Sequence record: PQ416618.1
Direction: 5' to 3' (one strand)
Source: Escherichia phage vB_VIPECOMC06
DNA: 64,000 nt
The translations under genes and the position numbers were made by a program. Shown here in pieces: positions 55,061 through 58,219 of this stretch. The number at the start of each line of letters is the position of its first letter. Position 1 is the first letter of the stretch. The notes beneath the pieces were generated by a model that saw only the letters and a list, made by a program, of their open reading frames with translations, was not told the DNA's origin and made no database searches.

Positions 55061-55376
55061 TATTAAACCGGTTGATGAGGCCGGTTTATCTGAACAAGAA
55101 TTAGCGGTAAAACACGATAAAGATGATATCGCTAAATTGCTTGACCGACAAGAAAACGGATTCATTATCGAATCCATGGTTGAACAATTTGGTATGTCTT
55201 ATTTAGAAGCAACAACTGCTTTCTTGGAAGAAAATTCTATTCCAGAAACACAATTTGCTAAATTTATTCCTACAGGAATTGTTGAAAAAATTACAAGCGA
55301 AGCAATTGATGAAAACATGCTTCGCCCATCAGTTGCTCGTGGTGAAAAAACTAATACGTTAGATTTCTTATTATGA
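55038..55376 (+). CDS. 33: Late transcription co-activator gp33
   Basis: 112 aa (T4 gp33 length); overlaps the dsbA 3' end; upstream of 59. Confidence 0.7.
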   Translation: MTQFSLSDIKPVDEAGLSEQELAVKHDKDDIAKLLDRQENGFIIESMVEQFGMSYLEATTAFLEENSIPETQFAKFIPTGIVEKITSEAIDENMLRPSVARGEKTNTLDFLL

Positions 55377-56056
55377 AATACGTTGTGTATAAAACTACCA
55401 ATAAAATAAATGGTAAAATTTATATAGGCGTACACAAAAAACATAAAGAGAAAGATTGGTATATTGGGTCTGGCCGCGCTATATTAGCGGCCAAAGCTAA
55501 ATACGGACTAAAAAATTTTTATACTGAAGTTCTTTATGAATATGATAATGACAAGGACGCCTATAAAAAAGAAGCAGAATTGGTTAATGAAGATTTTGTT
55601 TTGCGAACTGATACTTATAACCTGGTTCCAGGTGGTAAAGGTGGCCCTGGTAAAAAACAAAGTGATGAAGCTAAAAGGGCTATTTCACTTTCTAAAATAG
55701 GGAAACCTAGATCTGAAGAGACTAAGGCTAAAGTATCTAAAACCAGATTAGAAAGAAAAATACCATCACCTAATAAGGGTAAGAAACTATCTGAAGCTCA
55801 TAAATTAGCTTTGAGTAAAGTCCGAAAAGGGCGAAAAACGAATAAGCCGATGCCTGATTCAACCAAAGAAGCTCTTAGAATAGCAAATTCAAAGCCGCAT
55901 TCTAAAGAAAGAACTATTAAAAAACAAAAACCTATAATTATTGATGGTATAAAATACTCATCATGTACAGAAGTTTCGGATGTTTTTAATATTTCTGCAT
56001 CTCTAGTTACGTATAGACTTAAATCTTCAAAATGGCCTGGATGGAACTATGATTAA
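55373..56056 (+). CDS. GIY-YIG homing endonuclease (Seg-like) with NUMOD3-type DNA-binding repeats
   Basis: 227 aa; GIY-YIG core YVVYKTTNKINGKIYIGVH; four K-x-x-x-S-x-x-K-like repeats; overlaps the gp33 stop (ATGA) and the gp59 start. Confidence 0.7.
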   Translation: MKYVVYKTTNKINGKIYIGVHKKHKEKDWYIGSGRAILAAKAKYGLKNFYTEVLYEYDNDKDAYKKEAELVNEDFVLRTDTYNLVPGGKGGPGKKQSDEAKRAISLSKIGKPRSEETKAKVSKTRLERKIPSPNKGKKLSEAHKLALSKVRKGRKTNKPMPDSTKEALRIANSKPHSKERTIKKQKPIIIDGIKYSSCTEVSDVFNISASLVTYRLKSSKWPGWNYD

Positions 56057-56702
56057 AATACGCATGCCTCCTGACGGAGAACGTTATATTAATGGTAAAT
56101 CAGTATATAAACTATACTTGATGTGCAAAAACCACTTTGGTGGTCGGTATGACGTAATCAAATATAACTGGTGCATGCGTGTTTCGGATAATGCGTATCA
56201 AAAACGCCGAGATAAATATTTCTTTGAAAAACTAGCAGAGAAATATAAATTGAAGGAACTCACCTTGATATTTATAAGCAACTTAGTTGCTAACCAAGAC
56301 GCATGGATTGGTGAGATATCAGACGCTGATGCATTAGTTTTCTATAGGGAATATATTGGACGTCTCAAACAAGCCAAGGAGACGTTTGCTGAAGATGTAC
56401 GTAACATCTACTATTTCAGTAAGAAAGTGGAAGTTAGTGCGCTTCAAGAGATATTTGATTATAATAACAACGTTCAGTCGAGCTACATATTCAAATTGCT
56501 ACAAAGCAATATAATTTCATTTGAGACTTTCTTATTGTTGGACTCATTTTTGAATATTATAGATAAGCACGACGAACTTACTGACAATTTGGTCTGGCAA
56601 AATTATTCTACCAAATTAAAGGCATATCGAAAAATACTTCAAATCGATGGAAATGCTGCTAAGAAATTGTTCATAGAAACAATCAAATCATGTAGGTATT
56701 AA
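56049..56702 (+). CDS. 59: Helicase loader gp59
   Basis: 217 aa; MIKIRMPPDGERYINGKSVYKLY... matches T4 gp59. Confidence 0.9.
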   Translation: MIKIRMPPDGERYINGKSVYKLYLMCKNHFGGRYDVIKYNWCMRVSDNAYQKRRDKYFFEKLAEKYKLKELTLIFISNLVANQDAWIGEISDADALVFYREYIGRLKQAKETFAEDVRNIYYFSKKVEVSALQEIFDYNNNVQSSYIFKLLQSNIISFETFLLLDSFLNIIDKHDELTDNLVWQNYSTKLKAYRKILQIDGNAAKKLFIETIKSCRY

Positions 56703-56731
56703 GCTTTATTTCTTGTGTGTTAAAATTACTT

Positions 56732-56739
56732 TATAAATA
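56732..56739 (+). promoter_or_regulatory. T4 late promoter TATAAATA upstream of gene 32
   Basis: Exact TATAAATA about 80 nt upstream of the gene 32 ATG. Confidence 0.6.
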
Positions 56740-56749
56740 AATCATACCA

Positions 56750-56819
56750 GCTACGAGGTATAAGTGTCGTAGCAACCAACTGTAAATAAATTAAATAATC
56801 TAAATAAAGGTAATAATCC
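56750..56819 (+). promoter_or_regulatory. Gene 32 autoregulatory leader: hairpin/pseudoknot followed by an unstructured (U)UAAA-repeat tract
   Basis: Stem gctacga / tcgtagc (56750-56773), then tgtaaataaattaaataatctaaataaaggtaataatcc up to the ATG. Confidence 0.6.
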
Positions 56820-57719
56820 ATGTTTAAACGTAAATCTACTGCTGACCTCGCTGCTCAAATGGCTAAACTGAATGGTAACAAAGGTTTCTCTTCAGAAGAT
56901 AAAGGCGAATGGAAGCTGAAACTCGATGCATCTGGTAATGGTCAAGCGGTAATTCGTTTCTTGCCAGCAAAAACTGATGATGCACTACCATTTGCAATTC
57001 TTGTTAACCACGGTTTCAAGAAAAACGGTAAATGGTATATTGAAAATTGCTCTTCTACACATGGTGATTATGACTCTTGTCCTGTATGTCAGTACATTAG
57101 TAAAAATGACCTGTACAATACTAACAAAACTGAATATTCTCAACTGAAACGTAAAACTTCTTATTGGGCTAATATTCTGGTTGTTAAAGACCCTCAAGCT
57201 CCAGATAACGAAGGTAAAGTATTTAAATATCGTTTCGGTAAAAAGATTTGGGACAAAATTAATGCAATGATTGCAGTTGATACTGAAATGGGTGAAACTC
57301 CAGTTGATGTTACTTGCCCGTTTGAAGGTGCTAACTTCGTTCTTAAAGCTAAGCAGGTTTCTGGTTTTAGCAACTATGACGAATCTAAATTCTTGGGTCA
57401 ATCTGAAATTCCTCGTATTAATGACGAAGCATTCCAGAAAGAACTATATGACCAGATGGTAGACCTTACTACTTTGACGGCTAAAGACCAGTTCAAATCC
57501 TTTGAAAAATTAAATGAATCTTTCGCTAAGGTTCTTGGTACTGCCGCTCTTGGTGGTGCAGCAGCCGCAGCAGCTTCTGTTGCTGATAAAGTTGCTTCTG
57601 ACCTTGACGATTTTGATAAAGACATGGAAGCCTTTAGTTCTGCAAAAACTGAAGATGACTTCATGAGTTCCTCGTCTTCTGACGATGGCGACCTCGATGA
57701 CCTGTTAGCTGGTCTATAA
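56820..57719 (+). CDS. 32: Single-stranded DNA-binding protein gp32
   Basis: 299 aa; [19 protein letters not shown]...; zinc site ([10 protein letters not shown]); acidic C-terminus. Confidence 0.95.
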
Positions 57720-57725
57720 TAAATT

Positions 57726-57747
57726 GGGAGACTTCGGTCTCCCTTTT
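57726..57747 (+). terminator. Rho-independent terminator after gene 32 (gggagacTTCGgtctccc plus TTTT)
   Basis: 7-bp stem with UUCG loop, 6 nt after the stop, followed by ttttg. Confidence 0.75.
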
Positions 57748-57774
57748 GAGTATCTGTAAATTGCCGAAAAAGTT

Positions 57775-57803
57775 GTTTACTTTTCCTTTAAACATGATAC
57801 TAT
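57775..57803 (+). promoter_or_regulatory. T4-type early promoter (-35 GTTTAC, extended -10 TGaTACTAT)
   Basis: GTTTAC 57775-57780, 17-nt spacer, TACTAT 57798-57803. Confidence 0.55.
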
Positions 57804-57832
57804 AGACTTATCAACAACATGAGGAAATCAAA

Positions 57833-58219
57833 ATGGAAATCGGAAAATCTTATATCATTAACCCTTTATTTAAAGACGACTTTGCTAACGAGTGCCGTTG
57901 CAATGCAATGATGCTAAATTTAATAGAGAAGCACGGACCTAGTTTTGTTGTAGATGAAATGGAAAGTGATGATTGTGCTGGTGACTGTGTGGTACGTGTA
58001 ACTATGGAAGACGGCACTGAATACATGGCCGGTGGCCCACTTGAGACGTATTTTGAGATTTACTCTGAAGAATTCAAATACTTTACTGAGGTAACTTTAG
58101 AAAAGCCTCAACCTACTAACGAAGGTATAACTTTAGGTGTAACAAAAATCCATTGTATCGTAGATGAAACCAACGTCGACGAAATCATCAAACTTTTGCA
58201 AAAAACTTTTAAAAAGTAG
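57833..58219 (+). CDS. Hypothetical protein (128 aa)
   Basis: RBS gaggaaat; early promoter upstream. Confidence 0.45.
   Translation: MEIGKSYIINPLFKDDFANECRCNAMMLNLIEKHGPSFVVDEMESDDCAGDCVVRVTMEDGTEYMAGGPLETYFEIYSEEFKYFTEVTLEKPQPTNEGITLGVTKIHCIVDETNVDEIIKLLQKTFKK

Follow-up and report, generated by a model that had tools for sequence, protein, structure and literature searches.

The gene 32 operator of T4-like phages is a textbook example of how a replication protein senses the load of single-stranded DNA (ssDNA) and tunes its own synthesis, and it is the classic viral pseudoknot of translational autoregulation. In T4, the operator consists of a pseudoknot at -67 to -40 and UUAAA repeats, and both elements are reported to be essential for repression (introduction of PMC535899). 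The T2 pseudoknot structure was determined by NMR (PDB 2TPK, as cited in PMC3014915), and the same review, which groups the operators of RB69, T4 and T2, states a model of nucleation followed by cooperative spreading. Two other systems share with gene 32 a DNA-binding replication protein that represses through an RNA site in the 5' leader, the gp43 operator of T4 and RB69 and M13 gp5 acting on gene 2 mRNA; they differ in that the gp43 operator is a simple hairpin without a cooperative lattice, and M13 gp5 acts on the mRNA of another gene.

The RB69 gene 32 translational operator was characterised by Borjac-Natour, Petrov & Karam (2004, Virol J 1:4; PMC535899). According to that report, expression in vivo rose ~4-fold when the leader was deleted or gp32 carried missense mutations, and purified gp32 repressed its own mRNA in vitro. 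Hypersensitivity to DMS and DEPC was seen from A(-1) to A(-45), a segment that was insensitive to RNase V1 and that gp32 protected; RNase V1 did cut within the pseudoknot segment. Strong protection by RB69 gp32 extended from U(-14) to G(-61); T4 gp32 bound to the RB69 RNA gave protection mainly from C(-42) to G(-61), strong only near the pseudoknot's 3' half.

Genomic setting of the gene 32 leader

The window analysed here is a stretch of 64,000 nt from Escherichia phage vB_VIPECOMC06 (sequence record PQ416618.1), and all coordinates are window positions. Its genome is an RB69-like Mosigvirus: a blastn query made of the gene 59-gene 32 spacer with its flanks matched 675 phage records, with GADS24 as the best match at 99.6% and JK36 and HX01 next, and the leader alone matched 151 phage records by megablast, RB69 included. 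As judged by its sequence, the gene 32 leader is a real and already known element, essentially the RB69 allele, present in at least 150 sequenced phages. It is framed by the following features:

56049-56702, + strand: gene 59 (helicase loader), the upstream neighbour; from the ORF list, with Pfam T4_Gp59_N (E = 2e-49) and T4_Gp59_C (E = 1e-43)
56820-57719, + strand: gene 32, encoding the single-stranded DNA binding protein, both repressor and regulated product; a 299-aa ORF with PF08804
57726-57743, + strand: intrinsic terminator hairpin GGGAGAC-UUCG-GUCUCCC followed by UUUU, from the terminator scan; it ends the gene 32 transcript

The spacer between the two genes, from the base after the gene 59 stop codon (TAA, 56700-56702) to the base before the gene 32 AUG, is 117 nt long (leader, 56703-56819). 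Pfam assigned PF08804 to 56820-57716 (E = 9.7e-61), and BLAST aligned the window gp32 to RB69 gp32 over 278 residues, 258 of them identical (93%) and 20 different. As in RB69, the gene order is 59 then 32. The leader is identical to that of RB69 over 98 nt (56716-56813), a stretch that takes in the -10 element of the predicted middle promoter, TATAAATA of the late promoter, the pseudoknot in full and the A/U-rich lattice up to GGUAA. The differences from RB69 are substitutions at 56712, 56713 and 56715 and the spacer between the Shine-Dalgarno (SD) element and the AUG, which reads UAAUCC in the window as against AUAUA in RB69 and is 1 nt longer. Because of this additional nucleotide, RB69 positions map onto the window with a shift of +1, so that A(-45) of RB69, the first base after stem 2, corresponds to 56774. 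Since the SD-AUG spacer and 20 of 278 gp32 residues differ, gp32 affinities could differ from those in RB69.

The original prediction had read this leader as having the architecture of a gp32 autogenous translational operator, and that reading agrees with the downstream ORF, which is gp32, and with the 98-nt match to the published RB69 operator. A leader adjacent to gp32, a compact H-type pseudoknot, an A/U-rich lattice of more than 40 nt and homology to T4 and RB69, the features that define a T4-type gene 32 operator, are all found here. We consider it very probable that the leader is an RB69-type translational operator of gene 32 with proximal promoters. Autogenous repression, the pseudoknot and lattice structure and the gp32 footprints were demonstrated in RB69 and T4 only; for the window, we infer them from sequence identity. 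Another RB69-like copy adds nothing conceptually, and the value of the locus lies in the correct annotation of a regulatory element and in a corrected drawing of its pseudoknot.

Two neighbouring elements deserve a brief description. The terminator hairpin is strong, symmetric and GC-rich, carries T-runs on both strands, lies 7 nt past the gene 32 stop codon and is probably a bidirectional intrinsic terminator; a terminator 3' of gene 32 is conserved in five of six T4-like genomes (PMC1524935). On the other side, a GIY-YIG seg-like homing endonuclease ORF (55373-56056, + strand; Pfam I-TevI_DNA-bd, NUMOD3 and SegE_GIY-YIG) sits between genes 33 and 59 and is missing in RB69 and GADS24. Of the 165 phage records matching the query 55300-56120, only 28 cover at least 80% of it, which suggests that this ORF is a mobile insertion. 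In T4, by contrast, segG sits between genes 59 and 32.

A predicted compact H-type pseudoknot in the leader

The original prediction described a 7-bp stem at 56750-56773, a loop GGUAUAAGUG at 56757-56766 and an AACC at 56774-56777, all of which are found by direct reading, and proposed that the loop pairs with this downstream AACC in a pseudoknot-like arrangement. A pseudoknot is indeed indicated, both by an H-type motif that is unique in the window and by covariation, but the downstream partner was wrong. The hairpin loop is 10 nt long, and its first five bases, GGUAU, exactly complement an upstream AUACC. The pseudoknot partner of the loop is this upstream AUACC (5 bp), in a compact H-type fold as in T4 and T2, built from the following elements:

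56744-56748, + strand: stem 1, 5' strand AUACC; complementary to 56757-56761 and covarying across nine leaders
56749, + strand: loop 1, a single A, invariant in all nine compact pseudoknots
56750-56756, + strand: stem 2, 5' strand GCUACGA; a perfect 7-bp complement of 56767-56773
56757-56761, + strand: stem 1, 3' strand GGUAU, directly abutting stem 2; complementary to AUACC at 56744-56748
56762-56766, + strand: loop 2, AAGUG; 2-7 nt long among relatives and variable in sequence
56767-56773, + strand: stem 2, 3' strand UCGUAGC; pairs with 56750-56756

The predicted stem energies are -8.6 kcal/mol for stem 2 and -4.1 kcal/mol for stem 1, comparable to those of T4 (-7.3 and -3.1) and T2 (-7.0 and -6.1). 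Perfect 7-bp hairpins are common by themselves, with 106 per strand in the window and ~61 in shuffles. A scan for the compact H-type arrangement (stem 1 of at least 4 bp, 1-nt loop, 7-bp stem 2) over both strands of the 64-kb window found it exactly once, at the gene 32 leader, compared with 0.2 per strand in shuffles. Taken singly, the elements of the leader are within chance; it is their combination that stands out.

Nested folding of the leader, a test that is uninformative for pseudoknots, is not unusual compared with shuffles (z = -1.27) and yields a minimum free energy (MFE) structure with just the 7-bp hairpin. In the nested model, the lattice has a mean unpaired probability of only 0.63, and the two strands of stem 2 have 0.29-0.42. 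An Rfam scan of 56000-58200 with E up to 10 returned noise only and no gene 32 family; Rfam covariance models cannot encode pseudoknots. The hairpin was also considered as an intrinsic terminator of gene 59 and rejected, as it is without a U-tract and was not reported by the terminator scan.

Conservation of the pseudoknot among gene 32 leaders

Gene 32 leaders were gathered from IMG/VR and from annotated phage records, and nine distinct compact pseudoknots were obtained. Their stems, written as 5' strand/3' strand, are:

Window and RB69: stem 1 AUACC/GGUAU; stem 2 GCUACGA/UCGUAGC
T4: stem 1 UGCC/GGUA; stem 2 GCUAUGA/UCAUAGC
T2-type: stem 1 UGACC/GGUCA; stem 2 GCUAUGA/UCAUAGC
Loci L017 and L032: stem 1 GUCC/GGAC; stem 2 GGUGCAA with UUGCAUC (L017) or UUGCACC (L032)
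Winklervirus loci L021 and L022: stem 1 AUGCC/GGCAU; stem 2 GGUGUGA (L021) or GAUGUGA (L022) with UCACAUC
Locus L024: stem 1 UACC/GGUA; stem 2 GAUGCAA/UUGCAUC
Jiaodavirus locus L090: stem 1 GUCC/GGAC; stem 2 GUUGCAA/UUGCAAC

A first MAFFT alignment of untrimmed segments (A1) gapped stem 1 and was left out of the counting; the alignment used instead (A2) was trimmed by hand to the stems, which cut out the loop 2 segment that varies, and eight rows received one pad base at the unpaired column 26. In A2, which holds only nine sequences, picked for a visible pseudoknot and therefore leaning towards structure, 95.4% of the cells of the upstream pseudoknot are paired and both-sided changes occur in 7 of the 12 pairs (27 cells). 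The covariation score is 0.627 versus 0.219 in shuffles, none of 500 shuffles reaching 0.627, and slid controls are only 23-41% paired. The variation reaches both stems: the second pair of stem 1 is UA in five leaders and GC in four, the third is AU in three, UA in three, GC in two and GU in one, and stem 2 is 100% paired in the nine leaders with both-sided changes in four of its seven pairs. All nine compact pseudoknots have a 1-nt loop 1 and stems that abut directly.

Pseudoknot and lattice of the window can be aligned with the T4 and T2-type leaders. T4 shares the H-type topology, the 1-nt loop 1 (A), the 7-bp stem 2 abutting stem 1, a CCAACUGU directly 3' of the pseudoknot and an A/U-rich lattice with the SD element inside it, and the gp32 proteins cross-repress. 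T4 differs in that its stem 1 has 4 bp with a G-U pair (UGCC/GGUA), loop 2 is 1 nt shorter, stem 2 carries one compensatory pair (U-A in T4, C-G in the window), and the end of segG reaches into the 5' strand of the pseudoknot. The T2/T6 pseudoknot likewise stacks its two stems coaxially and has 5 bp in stem 1 (UGACC/GGUCA), 7 bp in stem 2 and a single nucleotide in loop 1; it differs from that of the window in a loop 2 of 7 rather than 5 nt and in a gap between TATAAATA and stem 1 of 17 rather than 4 nt.

Candidate extended H-type pseudoknots were seen upstream of gene 32 at two IMG/VR loci (L030 and L031) and in the Acinetobacter phages Acj61 (L093) and AB-Navy (L094), with a stem 1 of 7-8 bp, longer loops and a stem 2 of GGUGUAG/CUACAUC or GGUGUAC/GUACAUC. 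Stem 2 of Acj61 is ambiguous because GAUGUACAUC is self-complementary. A scan of IMG/VR for pseudoknot variants with the pattern CCAGN5AGGN{12,22}CAACTGT gave, among the matches listed, almost only chance hits and one true gene 32 leader (L115, T2-type).

Predicted promoters and 5' ends of the gene 32 transcript

Two promoters are predicted immediately upstream of the pseudoknot or at its edge:

56700-56726, + strand: predicted MotA-dependent middle promoter; Mot box TAAGCTTTA at 56700-56708, 12-nt spacer, -10 element TAAAAT at 56721-56726
56732-56739, + strand: T4-type late promoter box TATAAATA, exact consensus; predicted +1 at 56745

The late promoter box had been named in the original prediction and is an exact match at these positions. 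Its predicted start at 56745 follows from the placement of the box at -13 to -6 (PMC1524935). As TATAAATA is not enriched in the window (6 found, 7.8 expected), the call of a late promoter is based on its conserved position and on the predictions published for RB69. The homologous RB69 late promoter was predicted by Nolan et al. as Pl:147067, spanning 147025-147067 with a low HMM score of 7.5, and the RB69 TATAAATA maps to 147036-147043 by the coordinate mapping of the present analysis. Mosigvirus, T2-type, Winklervirus, L024 and L017/L032 leaders all keep the box 5' of the pseudoknot in spite of diverged flanks. Its distance to stem 1 is 4 nt in the window, 4-5 nt in Mosigvirus, Winklervirus (L021, L087) and L024, 17 nt in the T2-type leaders and 22 nt in L017.

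The middle promoter, directly upstream of the late promoter, had been missed. It matches the published consensus, (a/t)3TGCTTtA-N11-13-TataAT with GCTT at -30 to -27 (PMC1524935): GCTT lies at 56703-56706, which gives a predicted start at ~56733, and the Mot box overlaps the stop codon of gene 59. A homologous middle promoter has been predicted in RB69 (Pm:147081, score 18.1) and coincides with the window site by coordinate mapping. In T4, the middle and late promoters of gene 32 lie inside segG (PMC2988022).

With its predicted position at 56745, the late start would coincide with the second base of stem 1 and lie at the pseudoknot's 5' edge. A late transcript from this position would lose the outermost pair of stem 1 and hence begin at the pseudoknot with a 4-bp stem 1, the length found in T4. 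On a speculative reading, the late promoter of this lineage may be placed such that primary late transcripts start right at the pseudoknot, which would give the mRNA its stable 5' end without RNase E processing. In T4, RNase E is described as cutting back all gene 32 mRNAs to -71, ~4 nt ahead of the pseudoknot, and the message as unusually stable, with processing just 5' of the structure (PMC3014915). By analogy, an RNase E site near 56740-56744 in the window is plausible. The start sites of the window promoters, and a possible role of a 5'-terminal pseudoknot in mRNA stability, are likewise what we infer.

The A/U-rich lattice and the AACUGU element

Downstream of stem 2, the leader continues as follows:

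56774-56819, + strand: A/U-rich lattice for cooperative gp32 binding, unstructured; 46 nt, 80% A+U (window average 62.6%)
56778-56786, + strand: conserved element AACUGUAAA just 3' of the pseudoknot; AACUGU(A/U)AA is kept across leaders
56807-56811, + strand: Shine-Dalgarno element AAGGU, 8 nt before the AUG, read from the sequence; AAGG is invariant in the leader alignment

The original prediction had about 40 nt of UAAAUAA-type repeats running into the AUG, and the lattice fits this description well: it extends to the AUG at 56820, and UAAAUAA occurs in it three times with an exact 9-nt period (56783-56789, 56792-56798 and 56801-56807), where T4 has the repeat UUAAA. Folding prediction places no stable nested structure in it. 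At 56798-56811, the window retains a small hairpin that was proposed for RB69 between A(-21) and U(-8). Close relatives, all Mosigvirus genomes, have different versions of the SD-AUG spacer: UAAUCC in the window (56814-56819), AUAUA in RB69 and AAAGGCAAAUAAA in phi25-307 and mar007P3.

Of 36 distinct gene 32 leaders (loci L004-L032 and L084-L094), 30 carry AACUGU between -65 and -23, among them leaders of genera without a pseudoknot. Its background in the window is 54 occurrences per 128 kb, or about 2% per 50 nt. The available text of the RB69 paper (PMC535899) and of the review of T4 post-transcriptional control (PMC3014915) makes no mention of the element. Leaders carry one to four copies. 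Of the genera without a pseudoknot, in which the number goes up to 3-4, Karamvirus has three, partly within the last codons of gene 59; in L027 and L028, the copies lie in non-coding DNA; and in L017 and L032, the ancestral copy is mutated and another copy is found 8 nt downstream.

Mechanism and alternative explanations

By analogy with RB69 and T4, gene 32 mRNA of the window would be made in three ways: by read-through from gene 59, from the MotA-type middle promoter (~56733) and from the late promoter TATAAATA (~56745). In all three RNAs, the 5' leader would fold into the compact H-type pseudoknot. When free gp32 exceeds the available ssDNA, gp32 would recognise the pseudoknot as a nucleation site and polymerise cooperatively in the 3' direction over the 46-nt A/U-rich lattice (56774-56819), covering the Shine-Dalgarno element (56807-56811) and the AUG at 56820, and ribosome loading would be blocked. 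More exposed ssDNA would titrate gp32 away and restore translation.

Two alternatives concern the fold itself and are disfavoured by covariation together with the RB69 probing data. The topology of the original prediction, in which the loop bases GGU (56757-56759) pair with the downstream ACC (56775-56777) and the pseudoknot extends 3' of the hairpin, is extremely improbable. The GGU/ACC complementarity does exist in the window and also in the T4, T2-type and L024 leaders, but the helix would have only 3 bp, worth ~-0.9 kcal/mol as a duplex, and over the nine leaders it is 70.4% paired without any compensatory change, its third pair forming in only four. Loop column 16, which shows perfect covariation with the upstream strand, varies between U, A and C against a downstream partner that stays A; in addition, the unstructured region of RB69 was reported to begin at A(-45), right after stem 2, and includes the downstream ACC (PMC535899). 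A plain stem-loop without a pseudoknot, acting only as a 5' stabiliser or RNase E barrier or present by chance, has in its favour a nested MFE structure with nothing but the 7-bp hairpin, the frequency of such hairpins in the genome, and the stability of the T4 message and its RNase E processing just 5' of the structure (PMC3014915). We regard it as very unlikely nonetheless: covariation keeps stem 1 in register and gives one of its pairs four different forms, neither the 1-nt length of loop 1 nor the abutment of the stems varies, the T2 homologue was solved by NMR as a pseudoknot (cited in PMC3014915), and the RB69 pseudoknot segment was reported to be RNase V1-sensitive (PMC535899).

A further explanation accepts the upstream pseudoknot and the operator but divides the labour differently, the pseudoknot being mainly a protected 5' end of the late transcript that serves mRNA longevity, and gp32 specificity residing mainly in lattice motifs such as AACUGU and UAAAUAA. 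The predicted late +1 (56745) lies inside stem 1, the 4-5 nt gap recurs in Winklervirus and L024, many related genera without a pseudoknot keep AACUGU-type repeats, and in T4 RNase E is reported to cleave at -71, with the pseudoknot 67 nt upstream of the start codon (PMC3014915), all of which would suit such a division. Against it stand the reports that the T4 pseudoknot and the UUAAA elements are both essential for repression and that on RB69 RNA the strong protection by T4 gp32 is confined to the area of the pseudoknot's 3' half, which argues for direct recognition (PMC535899). As a replacement for nucleation at the pseudoknot this explanation is unlikely, yet a 5'-end stabilising function is compatible with the RB69-type operator as an additional role.

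Short repeats in distant gene 32 leaders

UAAAUAA occurs three times in the window leader, UUAAA is the repeat of T4, AACUGU is found in 30 of 36 leaders, and AUAC recurs in most distant leaders. On these grounds, the short repeats specific to each lineage could be sequence-specific determinants of a more widespread, pseudoknot-independent gp32 autoregulatory lattice in T4-like phages, a speculative reading to which we assign a rather small chance.

The distant leaders belong to gp32 genes that are ~40% identical (36-45%; IMG/VR loci L033-L081), and AACUGU is absent from the 60 nt upstream of these genes. In its place, AUAC, often as CAAUAC, is present in three to five copies per 60 nt in eight of the nine distant leaders counted and in one copy in the ninth, with 0.2-0.4 copies per 60 nt expected from the density at the loci. 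These AUAC repeats may represent a different, lineage-specific repeat lattice. In a search of phage records, the gp32 identity range of 36-45% was filled by Synechococcus and Prochlorococcus phages, so that the distant leaders are cyanophage-like.
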